Source: Caldisericia bacterium
GTDB taxonomy: Bacteria; Caldisericota; Caldisericia; UBA6126
Assembly (NCBI GenBank): GCA_035363255.1
Contig: DAOSES010000005.1
Span: 5,436 to 69,435 of the forward strand
Reading direction: 5' to 3'
DNA length: 64,000 nt
The notes beneath the pieces were generated by a model. That model had not been told where the DNA came from, made no database searches, and saw only the letters and a list, made by a program, of their open reading frames with translations. Positions within the stretch are counted from its first letter, which is position 1; each line of letters starts with the position of its first letter. Shown here piece by piece: positions 640 through 61,245 of this stretch. The translations under genes and the position numbers were made by a program.

Positions 640-1206
640 ATGACCTCCCTTCATCGATCGCAGGAAACAAAGCTCATCCAAAGGTGTAAAAAGGGTGATG
701 CTGAAGCCATGACGATCATCTATGAGTCCTTTAGCGAAGAGCTCCTACGCTCTGCTATTCTATTGTGTAAAAACTTGGACGATGCACAGGATATGGTGTC
801 CCAGGCTTTTATCTTATTCTTTAAATCGATCGATCGGTTTAATACCGACTACCCCCTTCGACCCTGGTTGCATCGAATATTGAAAAATGAAGCTATGACT
901 CTTTTTCAGAAACGAAGTCGAGGATTTGCATCCGAAGAAGATATAAAAATAAATTTAAATAGTTCTGAACCAAATGGGGAGGAAGAAGTATTTACTGCAG
1001 AGGAGACTAGATATTTAAAGGAGGCAATGGAGCAATTGAAGGAAGAAGAACGGTGGATACTTCAGGCATATTATTTTCAGGAATTGAGCATCAAAGATCT
1101 TGCCATAAGTCTTGAAATACCTGAAGGAACAGTAAAAAGCAGGTTATTTAATGCCCGTGCTTCTTTAGCCAAAAAAATACAAGCTCTAATGCAAAAACAA
1201 CTATGA
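640..1206 (+). CDS. ECF-family RNA polymerase sigma factor (sigma-70 regions 2 and 4)
   Basis: 188 aa. Region 2-like segment (DAQDMVSQAFILFFKSIDRFN...RPWLHRILKNEAM). C-terminal region 4 HTH (LSIKDLAISLEIPEGTVKSRLFNARASLAKK). Its stop overlaps the next start (ATGA). Confidence 0.85.
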   Translation: MTSLHRSQETKLIQRCKKGDAEAMTIIYESFSEELLRSAILLCKNLDDAQDMVSQAFILFFKSIDRFNTDYPLRPWLHRILKNEAMTLFQKRSRGFASEEDIKINLNSSEPNGEEEVFTAEETRYLKEAMEQLKEEERWILQAYYFQELSIKDLAISLEIPEGTVKSRLFNARASLAKKIQALMQKQL

Positions 1207-5158: not shown

Positions 5159-5166
5159 GGTGTAGC

Positions 5167-11338: not shown

Positions 11339-11459
11339 ATGAACCAAGCGATGAACCTGCTAAAAAAAGGATGGTATTTAGTTTATGATGAATAAAAAAA
11401 ATAACGACTATATTACAAAGTTTATGGATAATCGATTTTTAATGCAAAGGAGAAATATA

Positions 11460-17400: not shown

Positions 17401-20400
17401 TAATAGTCGAAATCTTGGGTCTTACTGGTATTAAAAATCCTGGAGTTGTTGGGCCTTATCGATTAGTAATTGAAACCACCTCTGAACCCACCCCGGTCGA
17501 GTCTATGGAATTTAGTCTCTTTTCATCCATCACTGCTCCTCTCGTGACTCTTTCCGTTTCTGATGCTACTCCTCCCAAACCCAAGGGCACCAGTCCTCAT
17601 GCCAAGGTTCAGGTTAAAATTGATTTCAATACTGGCCCCGCAGGCAATCTGGTAAAAGATATTGGCACTCTAAGCATTGAGTTTCCTTTTGATACTTATC
17701 TGCCACTTGCTTTTGCTCCTGGCAGCATTCGAGTCAATGGCATCACTCTCGTGGAAGCCCCTGTGGTAGATCTTGAACATCGCAAAATAACCATGAAAAC
17801 TCCTGTACATATTGCTTCCAATGCCGCAGTGGAAATTATTTTCACTGAATTGGCCGGAGTAAGAAATCCTACTCAACCTGGCAACTATACCCTCAAGGTA
17901 GCTAGCTCTTCAGAGCCCTTGTTTATTCGCTCCACTCCTTACGTGATTGAGGGGCTTTCTGCCGCAAGCGTGGAAGTTGATCCCTGTTTGTTTGATAGCG
18001 CTATGGCGAAATATCATATTAGCTTCCAAAACACACTTCCCATTCTCTCTGGTTCCACCATCATTATTGAGTTTCCCCATGGCACCAAATTGCCTTCAGT
18101 GATCCAGGGTAGTTATGTTCTGGTCAATGGAAGACCTGCCAATGTGGGCACTTTCCCTCAGGTAGCAGTCAATCTGCAAACAGTAGAAATTAAAGTACCC
18201 GAAAATATTCCTGGCTTATCCGTGATTGACATCGTCTTCCTTCCCGAAGCCCGTATCACCAATCCTCCCAGCGGAAACTATATGCTCAAGATCCGTACCA
18301 ATACTGCTGATCCTGATTTTCGCTTTATCGAATCTCAGCCTTACTATATCTGCCAGCTCATTTCGTTGGCATCAGTAGAGATTACTCCCCAAAATCCCAC
18401 CCTGGAAAAGAATTCCACTCGAGCTTTTACTGCTATTGTAAAAGACGATCAGGGCAATGAAGTCAAGTCGGGTTTACAATTCAATTGGACCTTGGAAGGC
18501 ACTGTAGGCAATATCTCGCCCAATAATGCCCGTACCGTTACCTTTACTGCCGGATCCCAAGCTGGAAAAGGCAAGCTGTCTGTTCAAGTCAGAGCTTATG
18601 GCACCCCCGATCCCGTCACAGCATCTACCGATATTACTATCGCTGCCAGTCTGGCATCCATTACCATATCTCCAAGCTCTGCTACCGTCCAAACAGGTAA
18701 AACTCAAACTTTTACCGCAACTGCAAAAGATGAATTAGGCGCAACCCTAAATATAGACGTTGATTGGACCCTCATTGGAGCATTAGGCTCCTTGAGTCCT
18801 GCCAAAGGCAAGACCACTACCTTCACTGCCAGCAGCACCGAAGGAACCGGACAAATCAAAGCTTCTGCCACTTTCGGAGGAGTTAGCAAAGAAGCTACTT
18901 CTTCTATCACTGTCAGCTCCGAAGCTGCTCCACCTCCCCCCCCTCCTCCTCCCCCACCCCCTGCTGATGTTCAACCTTTCACTGTGGTGGTAGCTCCATC
19001 CAATGTTCGCAGTAGTCAGGCAGAGATTAACTTCTCCTTTACAGTATCTGCTTTGGCAAACGTGGACAATGGACTCTTTGACATGACTATACCCGAAGCT
19101 TTCCCAGCGCCAATCCTGACCTCTTCTTCAGCAGGTTTTGTTGAAGTCAAGGGAGGAGCGGGAGTTGAATTAGCCACCCCTATTTCCATCAATCAACGAA
19201 CAATAACCATCACAGTCACCAAAATGACTCGGGGACAAATCTTTACTTTGTCGTATAGTCGCGTGACTGCTCCTGAACGTCCTGGTGAATATGTTTTTAT
19301 TTGTAATGGAAAAGCTAAAGCCGATGCAAGCATGAAAGAAGTTACCGAACAACCCAAAGTCACCGTCGTATCAGCCTCTGATGGTGCTGGTAGAGCTACC
19401 ATTCAGCCTAACGAAGCTTCAGCTGGAGCTATTGGTCAGCAGTTTGCCATTACTTTTATCGCTGATGCTATCATGGATGGAGGAGCCATTTCAGTGACTA
19501 TTCCTGATGGTTGGTCACGTCCCTCTCTTAACGCCACCTCCCCTGGATTTATAAAAATGGGTGAGATGACAGCAGAAGTTGGCTCTCTCGAAGTTTCTGG
19601 AAACGTCATCACCTTACCCATCGAAAAACTCGATATCAATCAAAAATTTACCATCCTTTATACCAATGTTGAAGTTCCCAAAAATCCCAATACCTACTCA
19701 TTCCTTGTGAAAAGTAAAGGCTTGGGTGGAACTCTCAAACCTATCGTTCTCAATCCCTCGGTCAAAGTGGACAACACCCGCATTGCAGACGGAAAAGTTG
19801 AAGTAAAGCCCAATATGACCAACACCCCCGCAGAATACTCCATCACCTTCCGTTCCTCTCTCAGTGGCTTCCTGCCCAAAGATATCGGCAAAATTACCCT
19901 GGTCTTCCCCGCCGAAACTACCTTACCCTCTTCCATTCCCTCCGATCAGGTCACAGTGAATGGAAAAGTGGTAACACAAGCCATTGAAGTCGATCCTCTT
20001 CGTAGCACTCTTAGCTTGAGCGTTCCTGAGGATTTACCCTCCAATTCGCTCATCATTGTAAAGTTTTCAGAAAAAGCAAATATCATCAATCCCAAGACTC
20101 CCAAAGAAGATTACCGCATTATGATTTCCACTACCTCAGATTCCATCCCAACAGCCAGTGCCAATTTCCGTATTGTGGTGTCTTTGTTGCGTAATGTTAA
20201 AGTTAGCGTTTCGCCCATTGTTCCTGGAGCAAGTGCTGCCTACAACATCAAGCTGATGGTGGGTGGAGCTGGAGCCTTAAACATCAATCAAGATACTATT
20301 ACTTTGGTCTTCCCCTCTGATACTGTTTTGCCGGCTACTATCGCTGCCAATAGCATCACTGTAAACGGAACACCGCTTCAAGTGCGTCCTCAGATCGATA

Positions 20401-22190: not shown

Positions 22191-22243
22191 AAAATGATGT
22201 ATACAAGGGCATCTTTCCTTTGCAAGCATAAAGGAGGACTCAG

Positions 22244-25200
22244 ATGAAGTTAAAAAAATGGTTTAGTTTGTTCTTAAGCTTGGTGTTGCTCTATTCCTGG
22301 ATACCATTGGGCAGGGCAGCCATCAGCAATCTGATCAATACCCCCACTCCCAACACAGCGGGTTCGAACGCTTCTCAACGAATCCGATTCATTAATGCAG
22401 TCACGATACCCGTGGGTGGTCGCGTTGAAGTCACCTTTCCTCAACAGTTTGATCTGAGTAGTGGAGGAGACTGGATTCCAGCGGATATCGTTTTAAACTT
22501 TCAAGGAGGGCCAGCAGTTACGGTCAGTGATGTGATACGTAATGGTCAAAAAATCTCCTTTGGCATTGGTGGAGCTGCTTCAGGAGTTGGATTTCAGGAG
22601 TTCACCCTCAATGCGCTGAGGATTATTAATCCCCCTACCCCCGGAACTTACACCGTATCTCTCACCACTCTTGGCATCACTGGAACCCAACTGGAAGGTA
22701 CAGCCACCTCTGCTTCATTTGAAATTATACAGGATATGAGTGCCGCTTCGGTCACGGTGGAACCCGATATTGCAGGGGCTAATGCCAAGATGACCATCCA
22801 ATTTCGTCTTGGAACTGGAACTTCTCGTAGTCTATATACGGGAGATCGTATCCGTGTTGCTTTTGATGCCAATGTGGTGGATTTGACCAAAGTTACCACC
22901 GTCCCCGGCACCATCCAACGATCGTTCCTAAAAGTAAATCAATCAGCAGTTACTACTGACCCCACCATCACTCCTGGTGAGCCTGGGGTGAGTCGGGGTA
23001 TTGTGGAAGTGATCATTCCCCAAAATATCACCTCCAGCGCTACCCAGGGTGCTGCTGTAACGATTACTTTCGAAACAGGCGCAGGCATTCTCAATCCAAA
23101 CGATGCTCCCTGGACTCGACGAGTGGAAGTTACCACCCTGCGAAGTAATGGCATCACCATTATCGAAGGTCCTGTGGCCTCAAATTTCTATGCCATTCGC
23201 ACCACCGTTGCTGCTCCCAAGGTGTTTGTCAGACCTGAAATAGTTGGTATGAACGCTGAATATCATTTATCCATGAAGCTTGGAGCTAACAGCAGTTTAC
23301 TCAAAAACTCTGGAAGGATTGATGTAATTTTCCCAGAAGGCACGCAAATGCCAGCTTCTATCCCAGCTTCTGCCATTCGCATCAACACTGCAGTAGCAGA
23401 ACCTGCCTTTCCCTGCGATGGACCCGATTCCCCTCCTTTTGAGCCTTTGGTTTCGGGACATAAGGTCTCTTTTGTGATGCCAGTGGATGCAGTAGCAAAC
23501 AATTTTATTTGTATTGTTTTCAAGGCTTCCAGCGGAATAAAAAATCCCACAAGTCCTAGAGTATATCACCTACAGATTTCTACTTCCTCGGATCCCTCCA
23601 TAATATCTTCTCAAAGTTATTCCATTCGTCTTTCAGGAAGAGCCCAAGTTACTCCAGACCCTGCGAAATCCTCCGAAAGAGCTCAATATACTATCCAATT
23701 CCAGACTGGAGTCGATGGAGCCCTATATCCCTTTGGCACTGCTGGAACCAACAAAAATATTATGATTACATATCCTGCTGGTTTTATACTTCCTGCAGGA
23801 ATTGCAGCTGGCTTGATAACAGTCAATGGAGTTGCTACCACTGAAGCTGCAGTTATTGCAGCCCAGGTGATTACTTTTCCAGTTCCCCAGGTGATCGAAA
23901 ATAACTCCTCCGTCACCATAATCATTAAAAAAGATGCTGGAATCATCAATCGAAAGATTGCGGAGTCTCCTGAATATCATAGTCTTGTGATAGAAACTGA
24001 CAAAGAAAAAGGTCCCAACAAGATTATTTCTGACCAATTTATGTTGTATTCACCCATTACCGAAGTCTATGTGGTTCCTGGTGATCTTGGGGTTGGAGTG
24101 GTTAGTCGATATGAAGTCAGTTTTAAAATTGGTGATGTGGTAGAGGGTTTGAAACCCAATGACCGTATCAGCATTGAATTTCCCGCTGGCACTACCTTAC
24201 CCTCTTTTATCTCCACAGGAAATGTTCGACTTCAGAACGATGCAGGAGTTTCTCCTTCTTCTTTAATTATTGCTGGAAACACTATTCACTTGACTCTTCC
24301 AGCTACCTTTGTGCCTGTTCCTCCTCCTCCTGGCATCAACAATGTAAAAGTAATCTTTTTCCAAAGCTCGGGCATACGAAATCCCGAAAATCCAGGTTCT
24401 TATCGAGCCACGGTATATACTTCACGCGAAAATACTCCAGTTTTATCTGAGTTTTATACGATTGGTACTGTTTCGGGTCAAGTTCAAGTAACTGTTGACC
24501 CCAACAAAACGGGCTATTGCACTACCAGTGCTGAGGGTGCTCATTACACCGTCCAATTTACCACGGGTCAAACAGGTGGCGTTTCTTCCGGACAGCGTAT
24601 TATGCTGGTATTTTCTCCTGAATATGGTCCCATTTTTACCGTCAACCATCCCCTGAATCTTATTCCAGCAGGCACCATTCTTGTTAATGGCATACCTACC
24701 CAAATCAACACCACCATCGACAATGCTCCCACCCCTCAACATCCTCTTGGGTCCAAAATGCTCTCCATTATTTCTCCCGTCAGCATCAGTTCTCAAAGTG
24801 TAGTAAAAATTGATTTGCTTTCTTCTGCAAACATTGATAATCCTCCAGTGTCTATCACCCCCCAACCTTTCTTCTTACGTGTTTTTACAGATAGTGAACC
24901 CAGTGTTATCTCTGGATTGTACTACCTGATCTCAACCATTCGAGGCATTGGGGCTGGCTGTCACGATCCTCTCGGAGTGGAGTTGACCAATCAACTCACC
25001 CGCATGGGAACTGATATCAAGATATCTTTGCGTACAGGTATAGTAGGTGCTCTCAATTCTGGCTCAGACAGGCTCCGAGTGAAATTTCCAGCCGAAACTC
25101 ATATTCCCAGCTTTATTTCTGGCCAATACATTCGAATCAACACTGTGGACAATTTTGCAACCAGTGTAAGCGTTTTGAATCCCAGTATTTCTGACAAAAC

Positions 25201-28200
25201 CGTAGCTTTCGAAATTCCATATGGGCTTACCATCGGAAATAACGCTACCGTATTTATCTATTTCCAACAGGGTGGAGGCATTGTTAATCCTTCTGTTCCT
25301 GGAAACTATCAACTTTTTGTATCCAGCACCAAAGAACCAACAGAAGTTGCTTCTCTTCATTATACTATCGAAGGAATCAGCATTTCACGTCCTACCGTAG
25401 CTCCTCTTCCTACGCTGGCTGGAGCAGAAAAAACCCAATATACTATAAAATTCATGACTGGTGCTTATGGGAGTTTGAATATTGGTGATACCATCAATTT
25501 TGAATTTCCTGCTGGAACCGATATCGATCCAACACCTCCCAGAAATCCTCTAAATCCAAGAACAATCTCTGCACAACATGTTTTGGTCAATGGAGTTCCT
25601 TGTATTATTGCACCCACCGTCATTAGTGCCACGCAGGTGATGATATATAGTCCAGTGGTCGTGCCTTCCAATTCGCGAGTCACCATTCTTTTCACCAAAG
25701 ATGCCAAAATCAAAAACCCTATCGCTGCAGGAGATCTTTATACCCTCAGAATGTGGACTATGAGAGAAGGTAGCTCAAGCAATCCCTTAGTATCGGATGC
25801 ATATGAGATTTCTTCAGCTACTAAAATCACGAAACCCGTAGTTACGGTAAGTCCCTGCACCCCCTACAGCCCCTCTCGTTATGTGCTCGAGTTTTATACT
25901 CCCACCGCTATGACAGCCAATGTCGATGCTTTTGACATCGATTTCCCTTCCGGAACCTTTATCCCTTCCAGCATGGATGCTTCCAAAATATTGTTCAGCA
26001 CTCAAGACAATCAAAACGTATCCTGTCAAATTAATCCTGTGATAGCTGCCTATCGAATCACCCTCACCACCCCTATCAATGTCAATGCCAATAGCTACGT
26101 TAAAATCGATTTACTACGTGATGCCGGTCTGCAAAATCCAGTCGCAGGTAACTACAATTTACAAATTGCTACCGTTGGAGCTATCCCTCCCAATCAGAAT
26201 GAATCCTATGCTTATTACATCTGCCCGGATCTTGATTTTGGACGCTTGGAAATTACACCTTCCAGTATGCGTCTTCCTGTAGGCAAAACTCAAATTTTTG
26301 TAGCCAGAGCTTATGACACCCAGGGTCAACTCATGGATTATGGTGTGACTTATCGCTGGAATCTTTCCTCAAATATTGGTATGTTAGAAAACAATCATAC
26401 CCAGACCACCGAATTTTATGCTCGCAACATGGGTTCAGCCAATTTATCAATGGTAGCAGAGTATGGCAATCGATCCATCTCCACCAGTGTTAGCGTGGTA
26501 GTCACAGGGCCAATGACTCGAATTCAATTGACACCCTCGGGCATTACCACCTCCAAGGGCTTGAAAACTCGTTTTACGGTTCAGGCTTTTGATGCCAACA
26601 ACGAAGCTGCTGAAGGAGTTCTTTACCAGTGGACGGTAAGCCCAGAGCTTGGTGTGATCACACCTGTCCCTCTAAGCGACGAAGTTGAATTCCACGCAGA
26701 TACCGAAGGGCAATGCGTGATACGGGTAAGGGGAACACAGGGCGGTTTGGTCCAAGAAGCTGAAGCTCAGGTGACAATCAAAGTAGGTGTCAATAATCTA
26801 GTGATCATGCCCTCCCAGCTTGGCAGCAACCCTCAACCCGGAGAAATTCTTGGACCCTTCACAGTTGAGCTCCAAAATCCTTTGAATCAAACTATCCCTG
26901 CATTTACTGAAACTCCCATCACTCTATCCTCCACTACTCCCCATGGTAGATTCTCTCTTGATGGTATCAACTGGACAAGCTCCAATCAACTTCATACCTC
27001 CATTATGACCAACTTTGACAAGACTCAGCCCTTCTACTTGTGTGTCTTGGAAGCAGGAGATTGTACTATTGTTGCCTCTTCTGATGACTACAACTCCTTC
27101 TTGATGCCATTATCTGTTCGCGGACACAAAAAAGGGATGGTCTTTTTATCTCCTCCGCAAAACCTGCGTAGAAACGTTATATCTGAAAAAATCAGCATCC
27201 AGATCCAAGATATTCTTGGTCAACCCTATGCAGTCAATAAAGACACGATGATACAGCTTAACTCCTCTTCTCCCCAGGGTCAATTTTCCAAGACCATGGA
27301 TCCATGGATACCCCTCGAAAGATTCCTGCTTTCTCCAAGCCAGCACACCCTGGAATTGTATTATCGTGACTCTCGGGAAGGCACCCTGTCCATCACAGCA
27401 AGCAATCCAATCTTTGGCAGTGTTTCGCAGATATTCAATGTTGCTTCTCCTGGCGCTGTCAGTGCTCCAGAAGTTGTAGTCAAACCTGCTGTTTCTGGTT
27501 TATCCGCCAGCTATCAGATATCTTTCCATGTCGGTTTTGATGGTGCTCTGGAAGCTTCTCGAGACTTCATCGAAGTGGTGTTTCCAGAAGGCACTCGTCT
27601 TCCCCAAAGCATCCCAGCCTCAATGATAACCATCAATTCACAGAGTTTGATACAAACTCCAGTCATCAACACTTCTTTGCGAAGTATTCGCATGATAGTT
27701 CCCAGCTCCATATCCTCTACTGAACGGGTGGACTTGGTGATTCCTTCCATTACCAATCCTGAGCGTACTGGAAAATATACCCTAAAAGTAGCTACCAGTG
27801 TCCAAGCTACCTATTCCGATTCCCAGCCATACACCATCGATTATTCCACGATTTCTGATTTGAGCTGTGAAGCTGTGCCTTCTATTGCTGGATCGATAGC
27901 AGAACAGCGAATCAACTTCAAAACAGGATTAAAAGGAGCCTTGGAAGCGGAGCAGGACATCACACTCATCTTTGATTTTGCCTACGAACTCCCTGCGGTG
28001 ATCAGCTCTGCACATGTTCTATTTAATGGAATTCCCCTACCTTTTGACCCCAGTGTCAGTGGCAAGGCAATTGTCATTAAAGCTCCTCGATCCATATCAG
28101 CTGAAACTCTTGTCAATATTGTATTTAGCAAGGAATGCGGGATTAAAAATCCCCTCTATCCTGGCACTTACCATATCCAGGGCTTCACCTCCGCAGAACA

Positions 28201-29845
28201 GGCTATGATCAAATCTTCTCCTATTGAGATTGTGCAACACTCCTTGATCCGAGATTTGGTGATCAAACCTCAGCCTGCGATGATATCCAAGGGGGCTGAA
28301 TATACGATTACCTTCAACACAGGACCATATGGAGCGCTAACTCAACAGGATTTTATCACTTTAAGCATGCCGGATTTAATGATGCCTCTCAACCTACCTC
28401 CTTCTTCGGTAGCTATCAACAATATACGAATTCAGCAAGCTATTGCTGTCCAAAACAATACGATTCAACTCCCTGTTCCAGCTTTTATCCCTGCGAGTGA
28501 AAAAATCACCGTTGTAATTTATCGTCAAGCAGGCATCATCAATCCTGCCAAATCCGCCAATGATTATCGCATTATGGCTCATACCAGCAAAGAGCCCTAT
28601 CCAGTGTCTTCCGCCCCATTCACTATCGAGCCTCAACTTGAAATCACCCACATGATCAACCCTCCAAATCCAGATGGAGCCAACAATTGGTATATCAACG
28701 AACCTATCATTATCTTTACTTCCAATGTTCAAGCTCGTATCTATTATAGAATTGACCAGGGCGCTGAAAGAGAGTATCTTGAGCCTATTCGACTAAGCGA
28801 ACACGGTCAACATACCATCTATTATCGTGGCACCTCTCTTCTGGGTAATGAATCCGAAGTCAAGTCCTTTACTTTCCAATACGATGGCACAGCACCAATC
28901 ATCGAAACCAATATTGGAGAAGATATTTCCTATACTCGAGAACAACGCATGGCTTTTAGTATCCTTATCAAAGACATTTCTCGCGTGACCATCACCCTTA
29001 ACGACCAAGCTATTCAACTCATCAACAATAGTTATTCAACTATTCTTGACCTTAAGACAGGTGAAAACAATTTTGTGATCAGGGCTATGGATGAAGCAGG
29101 TAATGTTTCCACTCTCCATAAAAAAATCATTTTCAAGTCTCAGCCTCCCATGCTCTTGATCACCTCTCCCACTTCCTTCCAAATGATACAGGACATCTAT
29201 TTTGCCACAACCAGCGCTGGTTCAGAGCTATTTGCGAATGTACGAATCAAAGGGTCCACCGAGATAGGAGTAGAAGGTTTGGAACTCATTTCTGACACCT
29301 TCAAGGGCTTCTCATTAACTATTCCTGTGGATTCCCTGGGTAATTTTGATCGAGTCGTGGGTATTCGCAGTATGGCAGGAGACAATGTTTTAACCATCAA
29401 AGCAGTGGATAAGGTGGGAAATGAAACTCGAGTCATGATCAGCTACATTCTGCGTATTACTGTTCGTCTGCGCATTGGAGTTGAAACAGGTTATGTCAAC
29501 GGAACTCCGGTCCAATTAGGCAGTAAACCTTACCTGAAATACAACAAACATACCATGGTTCCCTTCCGTTTGATTGCTGAGTCACTTGGTGCAACGGTAG
29601 GTTGGGAGCAGGCTACGCGAAAAGTTTCTTATGATTTCCGCGGAGTTCATATTGATTTATGGATAGGAAGCAAAACTGCTGAAGTGACCGATCAAAATGG
29701 CAGAAGGAGAACAGTGACCCTCTTAGCTGAGCCTGAGTTACTTAGTGGACGTACCTGGGTACCTTTGCGTTTTGTTTCCGAAGCTCTGGGTGCTAAAGTA
29801 GATTGGGACGCTAAACTTTGGGAAGCAATCGTCTCCTATCCTTAG
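22244..29845 (+). CDS. giant secreted surface protein (2533 aa): ~12 KNP modules, 2 Big_2 domains, C-terminal cassette with 2x Cu_amine_oxidN1
   Basis: RBS GGAGG before ATG 22244. Signal peptide MKLKKWFSLFLSLVLLYSWIPLGRAA. Module ends IINPPTPGTYTV, IKNPTSPRVYHL, IRNPENPGSYRA, IVNPSVPGNYQL, IKNPLYPGTYHI and others. Big_2 pair (LEITPSSMRLPVGKTQIF..., IQLTPSGITTSKGLKTRF...). WYINEP...YDGTAPIIE. C-terminal HTMVPFRLIAESLG and TWVPLRFVSEALG repeats. Confidence 0.85.
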   Translation: MKLKKWFSLFLSLVLLYSWIPLGRAAISNLINTPTPNTAGSNASQRIRFINAVTIPVGGRVEVTFPQQFDLSSGGDWIPADIVLNFQGGPAVTVSDVIRNGQKISFGIGGAASGVGFQEFTLNALRIINPPTPGTYTVSLTTLGITGTQLEGTATSASFEIIQDMSAASVTVEPDIAGANAKMTIQFRLGTGTSRSLYTGDRIRVAFDANVVDLTKVTTVPGTIQRSFLKVNQSAVTTDPTITPGEPGVSRGIVEVIIPQNITSSATQGAAVTITFETGAGILNPNDAPWTRRVEVTTLRSNGITIIEGPVASNFYAIRTTVAAPKVFVRPEIVGMNAEYHLSMKLGANSSLLKNSGRIDVIFPEGTQMPASIPASAIRINTAVAEPAFPCDGPDSPPFEPLVSGHKVSFVMPVDAVANNFICIVFKASSGIKNPTSPRVYHLQISTSSDPSIISSQSYSIRLSGRAQVTPDPAKSSERAQYTIQFQTGVDGALYPFGTAGTNKNIMITYPAGFILPAGIAAGLITVNGVATTEAAVIAAQVITFPVPQVIENNSSVTIIIKKDAGIINRKIAESPEYHSLVIETDKEKGPNKIISDQFMLYSPITEVYVVPGDLGVGVVSRYEVSFKIGDVVEGLKPNDRISIEFPAGTTLPSFISTGNVRLQNDAGVSPSSLIIAGNTIHLTLPATFVPVPPPPGINNVKVIFFQSSGIRNPENPGSYRATVYTSRENTPVLSEFYTIGTVSGQVQVTVDPNKTGYCTTSAEGAHYTVQFTTGQTGGVSSGQRIMLVFSPEYGPIFTVNHPLNLIPAGTILVNGIPTQINTTIDNAPTPQHPLGSKMLSIISPVSISSQSVVKIDLLSSANIDNPPVSITPQPFFLRVFTDSEPSVISGLYYLISTIRGIGAGCHDPLGVELTNQLTRMGTDIKISLRTGIVGALNSGSDRLRVKFPAETHIPSFISGQYIRINTVDNFATSVSVLNPSISDKTVAFEIPYGLTIGNNATVFIYFQQGGGIVNPSVPGNYQLFVSSTKEPTEVASLHYTIEGISISRPTVAPLPTLAGAEKTQYTIKFMTGAYGSLNIGDTINFEFPAGTDIDPTPPRNPLNPRTISAQHVLVNGVPCIIAPTVISATQVMIYSPVVVPSNSRVTILFTKDAKIKNPIAAGDLYTLRMWTMREGSSSNPLVSDAYEISSATKITKPVVTVSPCTPYSPSRYVLEFYTPTAMTANVDAFDIDFPSGTFIPSSMDASKILFSTQDNQNVSCQINPVIAAYRITLTTPINVNANSYVKIDLLRDAGLQNPVAGNYNLQIATVGAIPPNQNESYAYYICPDLDFGRLEITPSSMRLPVGKTQIFVARAYDTQGQLMDYGVTYRWNLSSNIGMLENNHTQTTEFYARNMGSANLSMVAEYGNRSISTSVSVVVTGPMTRIQLTPSGITTSKGLKTRFTVQAFDANNEAAEGVLYQWTVSPELGVITPVPLSDEVEFHADTEGQCVIRVRGTQGGLVQEAEAQVTIKVGVNNLVIMPSQLGSNPQPGEILGPFTVELQNPLNQTIPAFTETPITLSSTTPHGRFSLDGINWTSSNQLHTSIMTNFDKTQPFYLCVLEAGDCTIVASSDDYNSFLMPLSVRGHKKGMVFLSPPQNLRRNVISEKISIQIQDILGQPYAVNKDTMIQLNSSSPQGQFSKTMDPWIPLERFLLSPSQHTLELYYRDSREGTLSITASNPIFGSVSQIFNVASPGAVSAPEVVVKPAVSGLSASYQISFHVGFDGALEASRDFIEVVFPEGTRLPQSIPASMITINSQSLIQTPVINTSLRSIRMIVPSSISSTERVDLVIPSITNPERTGKYTLKVATSVQATYSDSQPYTIDYSTISDLSCEAVPSIAGSIAEQRINFKTGLKGALEAEQDITLIFDFAYELPAVISSAHVLFNGIPLPFDPSVSGKAIVIKAPRSISAETLVNIVFSKECGIKNPLYPGTYHIQGFTSAEQAMIKSSPIEIVQHSLIRDLVIKPQPAMISKGAEYTITFNTGPYGALTQQDFITLSMPDLMMPLNLPPSSVAINNIRIQQAIAVQNNTIQLPVPAFIPASEKITVVIYRQAGIINPAKSANDYRIMAHTSKEPYPVSSAPFTIEPQLEITHMINPPNPDGANNWYINEPIIIFTSNVQARIYYRIDQGAEREYLEPIRLSEHGQHTIYYRGTSLLGNESEVKSFTFQYDGTAPIIETNIGEDISYTREQRMAFSILIKDISRVTITLNDQAIQLINNSYSTILDLKTGENNFVIRAMDEAGNVSTLHKKIIFKSQPPMLLITSPTSFQMIQDIYFATTSAGSELFANVRIKGSTEIGVEGLELISDTFKGFSLTIPVDSLGNFDRVVGIRSMAGDNVLTIKAVDKVGNETRVMISYILRITVRLRIGVETGYVNGTPVQLGSKPYLKYNKHTMVPFRLIAESLGATVGWEQATRKVSYDFRGVHIDLWIGSKTAEVTDQNGRRRTVTLLAEPELLSGRTWVPLRFVSEALGAKVDWDAKLWEAIVSYP

Positions 29846-40762: not shown

Positions 40763-40836
40763 TGGCGGCACAGGGATTTGAACCCCGGACACTACGGGTA
40801 TGAGCCGTATGCTCTGACCAACTGAGCTATGCCGCC
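40763..40836 (-). tRNA. tRNA with CAT anticodon (elongator tRNA-Met or tRNA-Ile2 lysidine substrate)
   Basis: Minus-strand sequence GGCGGCATAGCTCAGTTGGTCAGAGCATACGGCTCATACCCGTAGTGTCCGGGGTTCAAATCCCTGTGCCGCCA folds as a cloverleaf with anticodon loop CTCATAC. G1:C72 is paired, so it is not an initiator tRNA. CCA is not encoded. Confidence 0.85.
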
Positions 40837-49956: not shown

Positions 49957-50034
49957 CGGAGCGTGGCGCAGTTTGGCTAGCGCACCAGCATGGGGTGCTG
50001 GGGGTCGGAAGTTCGAATCTTCTCGCTCCGACCA
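49957..50034 (+). tRNA. tRNA-Pro (anticodon GGG), CCA encoded
   Basis: CGGAGCG TG GCGC AGTTTGGCTA GCGC A CCAGC ATGGGGT GCTGG GGGTC GGAAG TTCGAAT CTTCT CGCTCCG A CCA: cloverleaf with anticodon GGG. Confidence 0.9.
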
Positions 50035-50053: not shown

Positions 50054-50130
50054 CGGGAAGTGGCTCAGCTTGGTAGAGCGCTTGGTTCGGGACTAAGAGG
50101 TCGCGGGTTCGAATCCCGCCTTCCCGACCA
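50054..50130 (+). tRNA. tRNA-Pro (anticodon CGG), CCA encoded
   Basis: CGGGAAG TG GCTC AGCTTGGTA GAGC G CTTGG TTCGGGA CTAAG AGGTC GCGGG TTCGAAT CCCGC CTTCCCG A CCA: cloverleaf with anticodon CGG. Confidence 0.9.
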
Positions 50131-54575: not shown

Positions 54576-57500
54576 ATGTCGATGGTTCATTTACATACCC
54601 ATTCCGAATTTAGTTTATTGGATGGACTCAATCGTATAGAGCGCATGGTTTGCGCCGTACGAGATTTGGGTCAGCATTCTCTTGCCCTTACCGACCATGG
54701 CGTCATGTATGGCGTGATTGATTTTTATAAAACCTGTCTAGCCCATAAGATTAAACCCATTATCGGCTGTGAACTATATTTTACCGACAAATCCCGCCAT
54801 CAAAAAGAATCAAGAGAAGATGCAGTCAACTATCACCTTATTCTTCTTGCCAAAAACTATCAAGGCTACCAAAACCTTTGCAAATTGGTTTCTTTAGCTC
54901 ATATCGAAGGTTTTTATTACAAGCCAAGACTCGATTGGGAGCTTCTGGAACAACACCATGAAGGTTTGGTGGCGATGTCCGCATGTATCAAGGGTCATGT
55001 GCCATACCTTCTTTTATCAGATCGCCCCGAGGAAGCTCGTCAAGTGGCTATGCGATACCAAGCTCTATTCAACGACGACTACTACCTTGAAGTTCAAAAT
55101 CATGGTCTTCCCGAGGAATTGAAAGTAAACCCTTTGCTGGCAGAGCTTGGAAAAGAACTAAACATTCCCCTGGTTGCCACTCAGGATGCCCATTATCCCT
55201 GCAGATCGGATGCCTATGCCCACGATTTACTGCTCTGTGTTCAAACCCTCAGCGACTACGACGACCCCCAGCGAATACGATTCAGCAACGACGAGTTTTA
55301 TATCAAATCTCAAGCTGAAATGCAGGAGCTTTTCAAAGAATACCCCGAAGCAGTGAGTAATACCGAGTTAATTGCTGAAAAGTGCAACATCGAGTTTGAT
55401 TTCGATCAATATCATCTGCCTGTCTATCAAAACGAAAACGTAAAAACAGTAGAAGAGCGCAAGGCATATCTCCAGGAGCTCTGCTATGCCGCATTACCCA
55501 AACGTTATGGATCTGATCCTTCTTCCGAAGTCTTAGAACGTCTCGAATACGAGCTCAAAATCATCAATGACATGCATTTTGTCGACTACTTCCTTGTCGT
55601 CCAGGATTTTGTCAATGAAGCCAAGCGGCGAAATATCTATGTAGGACCTGGCAGAGGTTCTGCAGCTGGCAGTATAGTGAGTTATCTTCTCAATATCACA
55701 GGCATTGACCCCCTCCAATACAAGCTCTATTTTGAACGTTTTCTCAATCCAGCTCGTATCAGTATGCCCGATATAGATATCGATTTTGAGGACGAACGTC
55801 GCGATGAAGTGATCGCTTATGTGCGCGAAAAATATGGAGCCTACAAAGTAGCCCAGGTAGCCACCTTTGGCAAGATGGAAGCCCGGGGAGTCATCCGAGA
55901 TGTAGCCCGAGCCTTCAAATATGATCAAAGCTGGGTCAATCGTCTCAGCAAAACCATTCCTTTTGGAAGATCCCTCGAAGAAGCCTATACCCTTTCTCCC
56001 GAGTTCAAACAAATTATAGATGAAAACGAGGATAATCGCCGGCTATATGATACTGCCAGGGATATTGAAGGGCAAACCCGCAATTTTTCTGTCCATGCCG
56101 CCGGAGTAGTGATAGGCGACACCGAGCTTTGGAACTATGTTCCCCTTCAGCTCGATAAAAACAAACATTTGGTGGTTCAATACGACAAAGACACCGTCGA
56201 AAAGATGGGTTTGCTTAAAATTGACTTTCTTGGTCTGCGCAACCTTACCGTAATTCGAGAATGTATTCAGCTCATCAACGAGCAACACCAAAAAGTCATC
56301 GATGTCGAAAAGATCCCCCTAAACGACCCTGAAGTCTTTCAGCTCTACAAAAAAGCTGCTACTAAGGGGGTATTTCAGGTCGAAAGCAGAGGAATGCGGC
56401 AAATCTTTAAAGAACTCGATCCCTCCGACATCGAAGATGTGATTGCGGTTATAGCGCTCTATCGTCCTGGTCCCATGGAGTTTATCAAGACCTTTATCCG
56501 CAACAAGGCACACCCCGAAGAAATTGTTTACGAACACCCTGTGCTTGAGCCTATTTTAAAAAACACCTACGGAATATGTGTTTATCAGGAACAGGTAATG
56601 TCCATTGCCCAGGTGATGGGTGGTTTCAGTCTCGGAGAAGCCGACTTGCTTCGAAAAGCCATGGGAAAAAAGAAAAAAGAGATTATGGAAGAGCTGAAAG
56701 GTGATTTTCTTCAGCGATCCCAAGCTCAGGGCTATACTCCAGAGGTAGCCAAAAGTATCTTCGAAAAACTGGAATTTTTTGCAGGATATGGCTTCAACCG
56801 TGCTCATGCCGCTGCTTATGGGCTTATCTCCTACCAAACCGCATGGTTCAAGGTCAGATACCCTGTCGAATATATGACCGCTCTTCTCAACAGCGTCAAA
56901 GACGACGAAAAAAAGCTTTCCGAGTATATTGCCGAATGCTATCAAATGAAAATAGAAGTGCTCCCTCCAGACATCAATCAGAGCCAAATCCATTTTACCA
57001 TTGAAAACAATAAGATCCGTTTTGCCCTTCTGGCAATAAAAAATGCTGGCAAAATCGCCTTAGAGCTAATCATCGAAAATCGTCAACAACAAGGACCTTT
57101 CCGCCACTACACCGATTTTGCCAAACGGATGAGCAGTGGAAAAGTCAACAAAAAAGTCATCGAATCTCTTATCAAAGCGGGTGCCTTTGATGTTTTTGAA
57201 GCTGATAGAACTTTTCTTCTTCAGCACATCGATGGAAACTGTGAGCCGGAAGTATCGCTTTTCGGAGCTTTGGAGCCATCACCTTCGCCCTTGGAAAAAA
57301 AACCAGTCAAAATAGATTATCATCAACATATGCACTACGAGAAAGAAGCTCTGGGTTTTTACTTTTCCATGCATCCCTTTGCTCCCTATCTCGAGACCTA
57401 TCCAGACTTCGCCTGCCCTCCCATCGAAGAGCTTCAAGAAGAAATTCCCGAACAAGAAATTCTGGTGGAAGTGTTTGGCTTGATTGAAAGTATTCGTCAA

Positions 57501-57986
57501 CCCCGAAAAAAGAATGGAACTAGCAATGGCAACACCGTTGTAATCGTCACTGTCGCTGATATGACTTCTTCCATGGAATTTGTGGCTTTTGGCAAAACAG
57601 CCGAAAACTTGCTCCAATGCAAAGACCAGGAAACCGCAGTTTTGCTCAGTATTCGAATACGTAAAGAGGAAGATCGGGTTCGAGCCAGTTTGGCAGATAT
57701 CAAACGTATGATCACACGCGAAGAAATGATCCGCGAACAAAGTGCTCATTGGAGGCTTGAGCTCTGCCTTGATTTGGATGTTCTCAGCTCTGAGCATCTG
57801 TCGCAAATTAGACAGTGCCTCCAGAAATATGCTGGCACCAACAGCATACAACTCATGATGAAAAAGTCCCCCTGGTTGATACGAGCAGGCACCTCATTGC
57901 AAGTGGAAAAAAGTCAACAACTCCTGCTGGAGCTTGAAGCGCTGACTGGTAGCCAGCTGATCGGATGGAAACGTTGCTTAAACTGA
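54576..57986 (+). CDS. dnaE: DNA polymerase III alpha subunit
   Basis: PHP domain (HLHTHSEFSLLDG), polymerase core, OB fold. 1136 aa. Confidence 0.95.
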   Translation: MSMVHLHTHSEFSLLDGLNRIERMVCAVRDLGQHSLALTDHGVMYGVIDFYKTCLAHKIKPIIGCELYFTDKSRHQKESREDAVNYHLILLAKNYQGYQNLCKLVSLAHIEGFYYKPRLDWELLEQHHEGLVAMSACIKGHVPYLLLSDRPEEARQVAMRYQALFNDDYYLEVQNHGLPEELKVNPLLAELGKELNIPLVATQDAHYPCRSDAYAHDLLLCVQTLSDYDDPQRIRFSNDEFYIKSQAEMQELFKEYPEAVSNTELIAEKCNIEFDFDQYHLPVYQNENVKTVEERKAYLQELCYAALPKRYGSDPSSEVLERLEYELKIINDMHFVDYFLVVQDFVNEAKRRNIYVGPGRGSAAGSIVSYLLNITGIDPLQYKLYFERFLNPARISMPDIDIDFEDERRDEVIAYVREKYGAYKVAQVATFGKMEARGVIRDVARAFKYDQSWVNRLSKTIPFGRSLEEAYTLSPEFKQIIDENEDNRRLYDTARDIEGQTRNFSVHAAGVVIGDTELWNYVPLQLDKNKHLVVQYDKDTVEKMGLLKIDFLGLRNLTVIRECIQLINEQHQKVIDVEKIPLNDPEVFQLYKKAATKGVFQVESRGMRQIFKELDPSDIEDVIAVIALYRPGPMEFIKTFIRNKAHPEEIVYEHPVLEPILKNTYGICVYQEQVMSIAQVMGGFSLGEADLLRKAMGKKKKEIMEELKGDFLQRSQAQGYTPEVAKSIFEKLEFFAGYGFNRAHAAAYGLISYQTAWFKVRYPVEYMTALLNSVKDDEKKLSEYIAECYQMKIEVLPPDINQSQIHFTIENNKIRFALLAIKNAGKIALELIIENRQQQGPFRHYTDFAKRMSSGKVNKKVIESLIKAGAFDVFEADRTFLLQHIDGNCEPEVSLFGALEPSPSPLEKKPVKIDYHQHMHYEKEALGFYFSMHPFAPYLETYPDFACPPIEELQEEIPEQEILVEVFGLIESIRQPRKKNGTSNGNTVVIVTVADMTSSMEFVAFGKTAENLLQCKDQETAVLLSIRIRKEEDRVRASLADIKRMITREEMIREQSAHWRLELCLDLDVLSSEHLSQIRQCLQKYAGTNSIQLMMKKSPWLIRAGTSLQVEKSQQLLLELEALTGSQLIGWKRCLN

Positions 57987-59761
57987 TTCGTTCGGTCCGT
58001 TTCCAGGTAGTCATGTTTACCAGTTTGCTGGTTATTTTGGGCAATGGTTTTCTGGCAGTCTTTATTGTTCGACAATACACTGAAAGTCTGGTCAGAGAAA
58101 AATACGAAAAGCTTGGTCAACATGCCAGATACCTGGCTCAGGTTTATCTCATCATCGACAACAATACCCAAAACAATGCCCGTACTCAGTTCAATGCCCA
58201 AAATCCTGGTCCTGATTTTCGTAGCTACGAAGACATCTATGCCCAACAGCGCCGAGAATGGCTTGAAAGCCCCTTAAAAGACCATACTGGTGGCTTGATG
58301 GAATACTCCGAAGAATTGGGTGCAGGCTTTTACTTCAGCGATCTTAAGCGAATTATGGCTTTTCAAGTCGATCCTCGTTTTATTGAGTATGATCGTCTGG
58401 TATATGCGGTGCCTGTCGAGCCTGAAGGGTCCTTTGTTTGGGTGGAAGAGTCCTATCACAACATCAATATTCAATTTAAAGCCCTCAATCAGAGAGCTTT
58501 CCAAATCACTTTTCTTATCATCCTTATCACTTTGTTTCTTGCTGGCCTATTCACCTGGTCCTTTTCAGTGCGAATGAAAAAAATTCTCACTACGCTTTCA
58601 CTGCTACAAAAAGATTTGCATGCTCCAGTCCCCTTTCTGAGCGGAGAATTCGGGCATATCTCAGAAGGGATCCGCTCCCTTGCCGAAGCTTTGATACGCA
58701 CACGATCTCGTTCCGAGCTCATTTTACGTAGCGCAAAAACGGGTATGATTGCCTTTGATCTTGATTTAAACATCGTGATGATCAATGAAGCCGCAGAGCA
58801 GTACCTGGAATGTAATGGAAACACTCTCGGCAATCTTGAAGTGCTCGATCGTCTTGGGCATCTGATAAGCACCACCATACAACAAGCCTTTGAAAGTGGA
58901 AATACCTATTCCTTCGATGGTATGCGCAAGGTAGTCGAATCCAAAGAAAAATATTTCAATATGACCATTATCCCCAACCAGGGAGATTCTGATGTAAAAA
59001 TGGTACTGGTTACCCTTGAAGATGTGAGTGAAAATGTCAAACTCATCAAAGAAGCTGAGAAAAACGAATCTCTTAAAATGCTTGGACTTTTTACCACCGG
59101 AGTTGCTCATGAAATCCGCAATCCACTTACCTCTATTAAGGGTTTTATCCAACTTTTAAACAAAAAAATGCAGGATCAAACTGATAATGCACGTTTGCTT
59201 CATTTGGTACTCCGAGAAATAGAACGTCTCGAAAACCTGATCAAAGACCTTATCACCTATGCCAGGCCCTCCAAGCCAAACTTTGAGTGGGTTCCGGCTG
59301 GCCCTTTGCTTGATACTATCGTGCAAGTTCTTGCTCCTCGCATCAGTCAGAAAAAAGCTGAAGTTTTACAGCTCGAACTGGACGAGTTGGAGCTTTTTAT
59401 CGATCGCCGGCAAATGTATCAGGTTTTCTTCAATCTCATACTCAATGCTATTCAAGCTGTTCCCTCCGAGAATGGGATCATCAAACTCCGAGCTGAAAAA
59501 CAGGAGCATTATGTCGATTTGATCGTGGAAGATAACGGTCGAGGTATAGAGAAAAGTGATTTTGGTAAAATCTTTACCCCCTTTTACACCACCAAAGATA
59601 AGGGTACAGGACTTGGTTTGGCTATCTCAAGGCGCATGATAGACGACCATGAAGGTAAGATTCTTTTTGATAGTATAGCAGGTGAGGGAACCATTTTCCG
59701 TGTTCGTTTATTCAAATATCGAATACGCAAATCAAACGATTTACAAGCACTTTCTGCCTGA
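57965..59761 (+). CDS. two-component sensor histidine kinase (2 TM, PAS, HisKA, HATPase_c)
   Basis: TM helices near aa 10-35 and 190-210. H-box GVAHEIRNPLTSIKGF. N/G boxes (LILNAIQAV, DNGRGI, GTGLGLAIS). 22-nt overlap with dnaE. Confidence 0.85.
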   Translation: METLLKLIRSVRFQVVMFTSLLVILGNGFLAVFIVRQYTESLVREKYEKLGQHARYLAQVYLIIDNNTQNNARTQFNAQNPGPDFRSYEDIYAQQRREWLESPLKDHTGGLMEYSEELGAGFYFSDLKRIMAFQVDPRFIEYDRLVYAVPVEPEGSFVWVEESYHNINIQFKALNQRAFQITFLIILITLFLAGLFTWSFSVRMKKILTTLSLLQKDLHAPVPFLSGEFGHISEGIRSLAEALIRTRSRSELILRSAKTGMIAFDLDLNIVMINEAAEQYLECNGNTLGNLEVLDRLGHLISTTIQQAFESGNTYSFDGMRKVVESKEKYFNMTIIPNQGDSDVKMVLVTLEDVSENVKLIKEAEKNESLKMLGLFTTGVAHEIRNPLTSIKGFIQLLNKKMQDQTDNARLLHLVLREIERLENLIKDLITYARPSKPNFEWVPAGPLLDTIVQVLAPRISQKKAEVLQLELDELELFIDRRQMYQVFFNLILNAIQAVPSENGIIKLRAEKQEHYVDLIVEDNGRGIEKSDFGKIFTPFYTTKDKGTGLGLAISRRMIDDHEGKILFDSIAGEGTIFRVRLFKYRIRKSNDLQALSA

Positions 59762-59779
59762 TTTAGTTATAATAGTAGC

Positions 59780-61087
59780 ATGGCAAAATATACGATATTA
59801 GTTGCAGACGATGAAGAAGGTGTGAGAGAGCTATTCAAAGAGATAGCTCTCGAAGAAGGTTTTAGGGTGTTGCTTGCCAAAGATGGCATTGAAGCAGTTC
59901 AAAAAGCAAGATCCGAAATCCCCGATGTTATTATTCTCGATATACGCATGCCCGATATGGATGGTATGGAAGCTTTTCGACGCATCAAAGAAAGTTTGAT
60001 GAATGTTCCCGTGATTTTTATTACTGCCTTCGGAACCTCCGACTTAGCGATAGAAGCAATGAAAAATGGGGCCTACAACTATCTCACCAAACCTTTTGAC
60101 ATCGATGAAATACGCATCGTCATTCGCAGGGCAATCCAACTCCGTCAACTCACCAACGAAGTCGCGGTGCTCCGTTCTGGTGGAAGCAATATCACTGCCG
60201 ACCAGGATGAGCTTCATGGTCATTCCCCCGTAATGCAAGAAATCTACAAGTCGATCGGACGCATTGCCGACAACGATGCAGCTGTTTTGCTGATTGGCGA
60301 AAATGGCACTGGCAAAGAGCTTATTGCCCGTAAAATTCACGAAAATTCCAATCGAAAGCTTTTGCCATTCGTCCTGATCAATTGTTGTCAGGAGCCTGCC
60401 ATTCTTGCCAACGAGCTCAAACTTATTCCGAGTTCTGAGTGTTCCGTTTTTTTTAGAAACATCGAAAAACTCCCCTCTTCCTCCCAACACTTGCTCATGG
60501 AAATTCTAAACCAAAAACCCAAATGGCGTATTATGTCGTCCAGTACTACCGATTTATCCCAAGAAGCTTCCTCTTCTCTATTTCGTGAAGACTTGTATTA
60601 TCTCATCAAGGTGGTACCCATCCAAATCTCGCCTCTGCGAGACCATATCGAAGATCTGGAAGACCTTGCTCTCTACTTTATGAAACGCTTCTGTATCCGT
60701 TACGGAAAAATTATCAACGGTTTTACTGCCGAAGCCCTCAAAGTCCTTCAAGGGCATCACTGGCCCGGAAATATGGATGAACTGGAAAATGCCGTAGCCC
60801 ATGCAGTTATAGTAGCAACTGGCACTCTGATTACAGCAGATGATTTGCCTGTTTCTCTTCGCGAAACACGCCATCCTACCATCAGTTCTCAAAAAAAACT
60901 ATTGCATGGTTTAAGTCTTCACGCCGCAGTAAAACAATTTGAAAAACAACTTATCCTTGACGCCCTCCAACAAGCTGGCGGTAGCAAGACCAAATCCGCT
61001 GAATTATTGGGCATTTCAAGGCGATCCCTCTTCAACAAAATGAAAGAATTTCAACTGCTCAAAGAAAACGAAACTGAACCAAATTGA
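59780..61087 (+). CDS. NtrC-family response regulator with degenerate sigma-54 activator domain (REC + AAA+ lacking GAFTGA/Walker B, + Fis-type HTH)
   Basis: REC domain (LVADDEEGVRE...DIRMPDMDG) and Walker A GENGTGKE. The segment where ESELFGHEKGAFTGA...LFLDEIGE would sit is shortened to ...LKLIPSSECSVFFRNIEKLP. C-terminal HTH KSAELLGISRRSLFNKMKE. Confidence 0.8.
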   Translation: MAKYTILVADDEEGVRELFKEIALEEGFRVLLAKDGIEAVQKARSEIPDVIILDIRMPDMDGMEAFRRIKESLMNVPVIFITAFGTSDLAIEAMKNGAYNYLTKPFDIDEIRIVIRRAIQLRQLTNEVAVLRSGGSNITADQDELHGHSPVMQEIYKSIGRIADNDAAVLLIGENGTGKELIARKIHENSNRKLLPFVLINCCQEPAILANELKLIPSSECSVFFRNIEKLPSSSQHLLMEILNQKPKWRIMSSSTTDLSQEASSSLFREDLYYLIKVVPIQISPLRDHIEDLEDLALYFMKRFCIRYGKIINGFTAEALKVLQGHHWPGNMDELENAVAHAVIVATGTLITADDLPVSLRETRHPTISSQKKLLHGLSLHAAVKQFEKQLILDALQQAGGSKTKSAELLGISRRSLFNKMKEFQLLKENETEPN

Positions 61088-61245
61088 GCTAAAACTCTAT
61101 TTTTTTTATAAAAAAATTAAGAAAAAGCTTGTTTTTTCTTGATTTTTTTGTAAACATTGCTTAAATTGAGGATAAATGAATGAATTGTATTGTTTTAACC
61201 TCGCAAGAAGCAAGCGATGCTTTAAATTAAAAGGGGGAAAAAGAA

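Follow-up and report, generated by a model that had tools for sequence, protein, structure and literature searches.

The 64-kb stretch of DNA analysed here (the window) derives from an uncultured member of the Caldisericota, its nearest genome matches being metagenome-assembled genomes of Caldisericota and Caldisericia. It carries a gene (59780..61087, forward strand) for a response regulator of 435 amino acids (aa), delimited by its open reading frame (ORF) and by Pfam and NCBIfam models, in which a receiver (REC) domain is followed by a degenerate AAA+ domain of the sigma-54 activator type, an AAA lid and a Fis-type helix-turn-helix (HTH). Upstream lies a gene for a sensor histidine kinase of 598 aa (57965..59761, forward strand), the candidate cognate partner, and downstream, beyond a spacer of 157 bp, the 5' part of a gene for a secreted giant surface protein (61245..>64000, forward strand; ~1584 aa, with a signal peptide), a conserved neighbour and a candidate target of the regulator.

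An earlier note on this sequence had described an NtrC-like regulator with an intact REC domain, Walker A motif and Fis-type HTH, and all three were recovered in our analysis. The REC domain (aa 6-115; 59795..60124, forward strand) matches PF00072 Response_reg (E 1.5e-30), the Walker A motif is aligned as GENGTGKE (aa 173-180; 60296..60319, forward strand), and the HTH (aa 384-424; 60929..61051, forward strand) matches the HTH_8 model PF02954 (E 1.2e-13), with AAA_lid_14 matched by Pfam at aa 287-368. The Pfam model for the central domain, PF00158 Sigma54_activat (E 4.5e-23), is matched in two parts, its middle being absent, and the matches to the best NCBIfam models, AtoC, NtrX, NtrC and ZraR, each fall into two stretches, one N-terminal and one C-terminal. 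The AtoC equivalog NF008469 reaches 321 bits against a cutoff of 714, and NtrX, NtrC and ZraR are likewise far under their cutoffs; in public annotation the protein is named 'AtoC' (JGI) or 'sigma-54-dependent Fis family regulator'. Judged from its sequence, the protein is a member of the NtrC family, with an acidic-pocket REC domain, a Fis-type HTH and a histidine kinase encoded alongside. The AlphaFold2 (AF2) model has a mean predicted local distance difference test score (pLDDT) of 86.6, with values of 85-95 in 10-residue blocks across a compactly folded central domain, and a long linker helix between REC and AAA+. Its nearest structures in Foldseek are NtrX, NtrC1, NtrC4, LuxO and VpsR, with FleQ also among the structural neighbours.

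We aligned the window protein with 76 homologues from a search of 5.8 billion proteins. All of the motifs of a sigma-54 enhancer-binding protein (EBP) are kept in 48 homologues of 455-480 aa (GESGTGKE, ESELFGHEKGAFT(D/G)A, FLDEIG, FERVGG, AATN, FREDLYYRLN and PGNVRELEN), whose hosts include Caldisericum, Cryosericum, other Caldisericia and non-Caldisericota, for example Desulfosporosinus. The other 29 proteins, of 430-440 aa and including the window protein, carry two deletions with identical boundaries, and are referred to below as the short clade. The first deletion, with its junction at N211/E212 (60410..60415, forward strand), has removed 17 residues and with them the whole of L1, the helix-2-insert loop that holds ESELFGHEKGAFT(G/D)A; the segment lost corresponds to IPExLLESELFGHEKGAFT(D/G)A in the full-length Caldisericota homologues and Desulfosporosinus. 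The second, with its junction at K246/P247 (60515..60520, forward strand), has removed 12 residues, representing L2, the pre-sensor-I insertion FERVGGxxxxxxxA. HMMER alignments to NtrC1, NtrX and ZraR break at query positions ~207-249, opposite ~70 target residues. The absence of the GAFTGA loop, as reported in the earlier note, is thus confirmed by a gap that takes all of L1, the loop being found in 0/29 members of the short clade and in 48/48 full-length homologues. The proposal that the segment had been replaced by a shorter unrelated stretch does not hold, as the domain is otherwise alignable and has undergone two clean deletions. The same alignment revealed neither a diverged but present GAFTGA nor a demonstrable ATPase motif. 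We additionally noted that the intact Caldisericota orthologues (within P0031-P0111) have GAFTDA or GSFTDA, with Asp at position 5, instead of the canonical GAFTGA that is present in the non-Caldisericota-type homologues (P0112-P0120, e.g. Desulfosporosinus).

The Walker B motif, which had been thought deleted along with the loop, is instead present as a strand and has been substituted. It remains alignable (S-V-F-F-R226-N227-I against T-I-F-L-D-E-I), leaving a catalytically dead remnant, V223-F-F-R226-N227, in place of the canonical hhhhDE (60446..60460, forward strand). In each of the 29 short-clade proteins the Asp is replaced by Arg or Lys and the Glu by Asn, Asp or Ser, whereas both residues are kept in 41/41 full-length proteins. 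Beyond what the earlier note had listed, we identified the loss of L2 in the second deletion, of the Arg finger, of the sensor I Asn and of the sensor II Arg. The Arg finger site, equivalent to R168 of PspF, is Leu275 in the window protein (60602..60604, forward strand; YYRLN to YYLIK), and is Arg in 48/48 full-length and 0/29 short proteins; the sensor II site, equivalent to R227 of PspF, is Asp333 (60776..60778, forward strand; PGNVRELEN to PGNMDELEN), and is Arg in 48/48 full-length proteins and Asp, Asn, Glu or Gly in 29/29 short ones. The sensor I Asn is gone in 27/29 members (T256 in the window protein). R269, a residue between subunits, is lost or variable. Walker A has been more durable, with Lys179 kept in 23/29 members and the post-Walker-A KExxxR retained in the window protein and 23/29 relatives. 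In the six members P0024 and P0026-P0030 (L010, L054 and L172) the Walker A Gly and Lys have also been lost, with GTE-x-D in place of GTGKE, and every member of this Walker-A-less sub-branch has Lys at the position of the Walker B Asp. Of the features by which a sigma-54 EBP is recognised, the window protein is missing L1, L2 and the hydrolysis residues, and keeps the homology to PF00158.

The protein is encoded in identical form on at least 22 independently assembled contigs, and 28 orthologues have its deletion boundaries, with the short clade extending down to 43% identity. Thus, the lesions are not the product of chance or of an assembly artefact. The residues D10, D11, D54 (the phospho-acceptor), T82 and K104 of the REC domain do not vary, either in the short clade (29/29) or among the full-length proteins (41/41), and the HTH recognition helix, LGISRRSLFNKM, hardly differs from its counterpart in the intact orthologues, LGISRKSLFNKI. 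For REC, the mean pairwise identity is 0.71 among the short proteins versus 0.68 among the intact ones, and for the HTH it is 0.66 versus 0.69, whereas that of the AAA+ alpha/beta core falls from 0.78 in the intact proteins to 0.44 in the short clade. The motor has turned from the most constrained part of the protein into one of the least, with the sensor and DNA-binding ends unchanged. The central domain evolves ~5x faster than REC, and nonsynonymous divergence (pN) is far under synonymous divergence (pS) in every domain (AAA+ core, pN 0.23 against pS 0.73; REC, pN 0.04), indicating, as far as can be judged from substitution patterns, that the gene is under purifying selection, the AAA+ core included, and is not a pseudogene.

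The kinase contains a transmembrane sensor region and PAS, HisKA and HATPase_c domains by Pfam, and is AtoS-like, scoring below the NCBIfam cutoff. Its start overlaps the stop of dnaE by 22 nt, and it is adjacent to or overlapping the regulator gene in every orthologous locus examined. The gene order rplT-glmM-dnaE-HK-RR-giant secreted protein (~1580-1600 aa; HK, histidine kinase; RR, response regulator) was found in all short-clade loci examined, and in the window the genes glmM-dnaE-HK-RR (54576..61087, forward strand) place the two-component system inside a string of housekeeping genes. A complete copy of the giant protein, at another locus (L001), contains Big_1, Big_2, Glucodextran_B and Cu_amine_oxidN1 domains.

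We reconstructed the origin of the short clade with a neighbour-joining tree built from the REC, lid and HTH columns only, the AAA+ core being left out. The 29 short proteins are monophyletic, and their sister is the intact pair P0031/P0032. These two proteins and that of Caldisericum exile (P0081, AP012051.1) belong to the same family as the window protein, to which they are 41-45% identical; they share its HTH recognition helix, and their kinases are homologous, that of C. exile being 38% identical (core) to the kinase of the window. They differ from it in their length of 465-480 aa and in keeping ESELFGHEKGAFTDA, FLDEIG, FERVGG, ATN, YYRLN and NVRELEN. The intact sister regulator (P0031; L088) is also followed by a homologous giant protein (1958 aa, E 8e-117). 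Because of this monophyly, the intact sister with a homologous giant protein beside it and the homologous C. exile kinase, we conclude that the sigma-54 machinery was lost a single time, within one Caldisericota lineage, from an ancestral kinase-regulator pair of the sigma-54 type that by then was linked to this surface-protein gene.

Conservation is poor across the spacer that separates the regulator from the giant gene, except in one block, CTTGATTTTTT-N8-TTG(C/T)TTAAAT, which is kept in 9/9 lineages examined and occurs a single time in the window. We infer that this block is a sigma-70/sigma-A promoter (61138..61166, forward strand), with a putative -35 element TTGATT at 61139-61144, a 16-nt spacer, TG at 61158-61159 and a -10 element TTAAAT at 61161-61166; a strong ribosome-binding site, AAAGGGGG, lies 3' of it. 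It cannot be a -24/-12 promoter, since it contains no GG (no GG-N10-GC). A consensus promoter and terminator scanner called nothing in 60900-61400, as the -10 (TTAAAT or TAAATT) does not satisfy its fixed rule for the second hexamer ('A at position 2'), and the assignment accordingly rests on conservation across lineages. Within the same spacer we found an AT-only inverted repeat (61105..61154) with 22-nt arms that are complementary at 20/22 positions around a 6-nt spacer, and whose right arm covers the -35. None of 300 shuffles reached it; it is conserved in the closest relative (L007) only and is weaker or absent in distant orthologous loci, and we put it forward with low confidence as a candidate operator. 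The 5' untranslated region (UTR) of the giant gene, of ~80 nt (61167..61244; also seen at L007, L008 and L169-L171), has a conserved (G)TCTTC, a possible pairing partner of the GGGGGA Shine-Dalgarno, together with a small hairpin, AAGCA/TGCTT. Its RNAalifold consensus is very weak (-1.7 kcal/mol), and an Rfam scan of the window gave no match in this UTR, returning three tRNA genes only (40763..40836, reverse strand; 49957..50031 and 50054..50127, forward strand).

We found no sign of sigma-54 promoters at these loci. As in the earlier note, there was no exact match to TGGCAC-N5-TTGC in the window, the eight matches with one mismatch all falling within coding sequence; no intergenic -24/-12 promoter was present in the 64 kb at <=1 mismatch, and none beside the regulator gene in nine lineages. 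In six further short-clade loci and two loci of intact orthologues only weak matches inside genes were found, a result that has no bearing on whether rpoN is present. At <=2 mismatches the window contains 77 matches against an expected 53 +/- 7.5, many of them in the repetitive giant ORFs at 11385-29845, and this excess is probably a compositional or codon effect rather than a set of promoters. Near-consensus sigma-70 promoters were seen ahead of the operon of the intact sister regulator and giant gene (L088, 9925..9965, TTGACA-N17-TAGAAT) and ahead of the gene that follows the regulator operon of C. exile (L087, 12665..12695, TTGACA-N17-TATAAT), neither with a -24/-12 element nearby. No rpoN was found among the ORFs of the window, the part of the genome covered by this search, and our literature search found no paper on sigma-54 or rpoN in Caldisericota or Caldisericum.

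The explanation that we favour, to which we assign a probability of about 0.72, is that the protein is a functional 'atypical' NtrC-family response regulator, whose AAA+ domain is a catalytically dead scaffold descended from a sigma-54 activator and which would bind DNA under the control of phosphorylation and independently of sigma-54. The earlier note had arrived at two options, a sigma-54-independent regulator or a degenerate pseudo-activator, either of them under the upstream kinase, and the lesions in 29/29 short proteins, the conservation of REC and HTH and the adjacency of the kinase speak for that description. We draw the mechanism by analogy with characterised relatives, EBP homologues without GAFTGA that act at sigma-70 promoters and do not hydrolyse ATP. 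The membrane histidine kinase would phosphorylate Asp54 of the receiver, and phosphorylation, transmitted via the REC-AAA+ linker helix, would alter dimerisation or oligomerisation and the display of the two Fis-type HTHs. The regulator may then bind DNA and activate or repress transcription by the sigma-70/sigma-A holoenzyme, without contact to sigma-54 and without ATP hydrolysis, with its HTH pair positioned close to a promoter of the sigma-70 type, the giant gene's being the most plausible. This adjoining downstream gene, which encodes a surface (S-layer-like) protein and has a strongly conserved sigma-70-type promoter, is the most likely target.

Several points weigh against this explanation. 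The case is built by reasoning from sequence, and both DNA binding and target are predictions. Palindrome enumeration against shuffles and comparison of the orthologous intergenic regions found no shared motif save the promoter and A/T tracts (AAAAA-N5/6-TTTTT), so that the target has been picked by its adjacency and is a guess. At the sister locus (L088) the regulator and giant gene are co-transcribed, which is not an arrangement of regulator and target. Walker A is retained in 23/29 members, so nucleotide binding may still matter, and dS is saturated (>1.7), so that dN/dS values are only rough.

It is well established that EBP homologues can lack GAFTGA and function with sigma-70, a class comprising TyrR, DhaR, HupR, PhhR, HsfA, NtrX and VpsR (PMC3162934, PMC6158489), and the NtrC proteins of Rhodobacter capsulatus and Caulobacter are also sigma-54-independent and act at sigma-70 promoters (PMC10274813). 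The window protein would join these atypical EBPs, with their defective or deleted GAFTGA, as a more degenerate member, the evidence that it acts with sigma-70 and without ATP hydrolysis being circumstantial. Among characterised relatives, the closest in logic is VpsR of Vibrio cholerae (PDB 7v2b), which shares the REC-AAA+-HTH architecture, has no GAFTGA, has N-D rather than D-E in Walker B and no ATPase activity, and activates the sigma-70 promoter of exopolysaccharide genes from a site beside the -35 (PMC6158489). It is also the only solved structure that aligns in sequence to the central domain as one continuous stretch, at ~22% identity. However, VpsR is ~23 residues longer over the same stretch, with only a small lesion in L1 and with L2 kept, and the Arg finger, sensor I and sensor II have been lost in the Caldisericota protein in addition. 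VpsR binds c-di-GMP and does not need phosphorylation, whereas the Caldisericota protein keeps an adjacent kinase.

The best Foldseek match to the full-length model is NtrX of Brucella abortus (PDB 5m7n/o/p; E 5e-35), a full-length NtrC-family protein listed as an atypical, sigma-54-independent EBP and a dimeric repressor (PMC6158489). It differs in its central segment of normal length (residues 201-272, against 203-248 of the query), and comes from another phylum, where its partner is NtrY. The NtrC proteins of R. capsulatus and Caulobacter crescentus resemble our protein in being paired with a kinase, in an L1 deletion that removes GAFTGA and in acting at sigma-70 promoters, and their phospho-acceptor Asp is required (PMC10274813). 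Only L1 has been deleted in them (8 residues in Caulobacter, more in Rhodobacter), whereas the Caldisericota protein is also without L2 and the hydrolysis residues; ATP binding is still used in both, and probably hydrolysis too in Caulobacter. Similarly, TyrR, PhhR and DhaR of Proteobacteria and HupR of R. capsulatus are descendants of sigma-54 EBPs turned sigma-70-dependent via lesions in GAFTGA (PMC3162934, PMC6158489). They retain ATP binding for oligomerisation, and TyrR, PhhR and DhaR, with N-terminal ACT/PAS or GAF domains, are not response regulators, as HupR is.

By its sequence, the Caldisericota clade goes beyond all of these named atypical EBPs, with both AAA+ insertions excised and the hydrolysis residues gone; the double deletion of L1 and L2 was found in no solved structure. 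It is not unique, however: when 1.84 billion cluster representatives were searched with the central domain, three unrelated proteins came up in which L1 is deleted and L2 is shortened, P0165 (447 aa), P0219 (319 aa) and P0220 (329 aa). The first, with a REC-AAA-HTH architecture, is also without Walker B, Arg finger and sensor II, and the other two are without a receiver domain. All three depart from the Caldisericota clade in sequence and length, and AAA+ decay of this kind thus recurs.

We considered other functions for the protein. The remnant P-loop might bind a nucleotide messenger, either ATP or, as in VpsR and FleQ, c-di-GMP, that gates DNA binding with or instead of phosphorylation. Retention of Walker A and KExxxR in the window protein and 23/29 relatives, the presence of VpsR and FleQ among the structural neighbours, and the requirement of Rhodobacter NtrC for ATP binding without hydrolysis (PMC10274813) are all consistent with such ligand sensing. 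The six members that lack the Walker A Lys and Gly do not fit it, and the basic residue at the position of the Walker B Asp in 29/29 proteins would disfavour a Mg-nucleotide, and we consider it an unlikely function. It is also rather improbable that the protein is an anti-activator, titrator or phosphate sink, lowering sigma-54 transcription either by docking its dead AAA+ domain on an intact paralogous EBP, in mixed non-productive rings, or by competition of its REC domain for phosphoryl groups. Such a role could account for an AAA+ fold and lid that are retained, confidently modelled and, for the AAA+ domain, still under purifying selection, and for Walker A in 23/29 members, and intact EBPs do exist in other Caldisericota. 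A pure titrator, however, would not need an HTH conserved as in the intact relatives; the loss or variation of the Arg finger and R269 weakens the ring interfaces; the short protein has taken the place of the ancestral orthologue and is not an addition to it; and neither an intact EBP nor rpoN is known from these genomes, no genome-wide search for them having been possible.

There is very little probability that the protein still activates sigma-54, via a non-canonical contact surface and with energy supplied in trans. The database annotation as 'sigma-54 dependent' and the identity of the best NCBIfam models are what favour it, and those matches are split in two and far under their cutoffs. 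The loops that contact sigma-54, L1 and L2, are physically gone, 0/29 proteins retain Walker B, the Arg finger or sensor II, no -24/-12 promoter was found in the window or beside the gene in nine lineages, and single substitutions in GAFTGA already abolish activation (PMC3162934). Finally, a lack of function, be it that of a pseudogene in decay or of an artefact of assembly or annotation, which the loss of catalytic residues from a fast-evolving central domain and the lack of an obvious Shine-Dalgarno ahead of the regulator ATG might suggest, is effectively refuted by the intact ORF in 29 cluster representatives with the same deletion boundaries, the identical protein on independent contigs, the low pN relative to pS with fully conserved REC and HTH, and translational coupling to the kinase in relatives with overlapping genes.

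Beyond the atypical regulator that we favour, a more specific scenario can be drawn, and we regard it as tentative and on the whole doubtful. Here, a whole Caldisericota lineage would have turned its ancestral kinase-regulator pair, at first dependent on sigma-54, into a switch that depends on sigma-A and controls the major S-layer-like protein of the lineage, through excision of L1 and L2 and replacement of the Walker B Asp by Arg or Lys, which would leave a nucleotide-independent, 'self-filled' pseudo-ATPase scaffold, perhaps coinciding with the loss of rpoN. If true, no EBP would so far have undergone a more complete 'motor-to-scaffold' conversion in nature, and the intact and converted states would both survive in sister lineages.

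Elsewhere in the window, we identified further genes for surface proteins and their possible regulators. Five secreted proteins, including that downstream of the regulator (3521..5158, 5155..8643, 11385..22190, 22244..29845 and 61245..>64000, all on the forward strand), share C-terminal Glucodextran_B and Cu_amine_oxidN1 domains, which are probably the envelope-anchoring module of the surface proteins of this lineage; two of the five are giants of 3601 and 2533 aa. An ECF-type sigma factor (640..1206, forward strand) and an overlapping ORF of 773 aa without a Pfam match (1203..3524, forward strand), possibly an anti-sigma factor, lie directly upstream of two of these surface-protein genes.

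For the annotation of such proteins, the labels 'AtoC' and 'sigma-54-dependent' are almost certainly wrong here, and proteins miscounted in this way inflate predicted sigma-54 regulons, as Francke et al. have already pointed out (PMC3162934). The family itself offers a natural series of AAA+ decay, from an intact orthologue, through a sister with the same neighbour gene, to the degenerate clade and its Walker-A-less sub-branch, with the sensor and DNA-binding ends remaining fixed throughout. For the biology of these uncultured anaerobes, our data do not reveal a new kind of system, and provide a hint that the expression of a giant envelope protein may be under two-component control.

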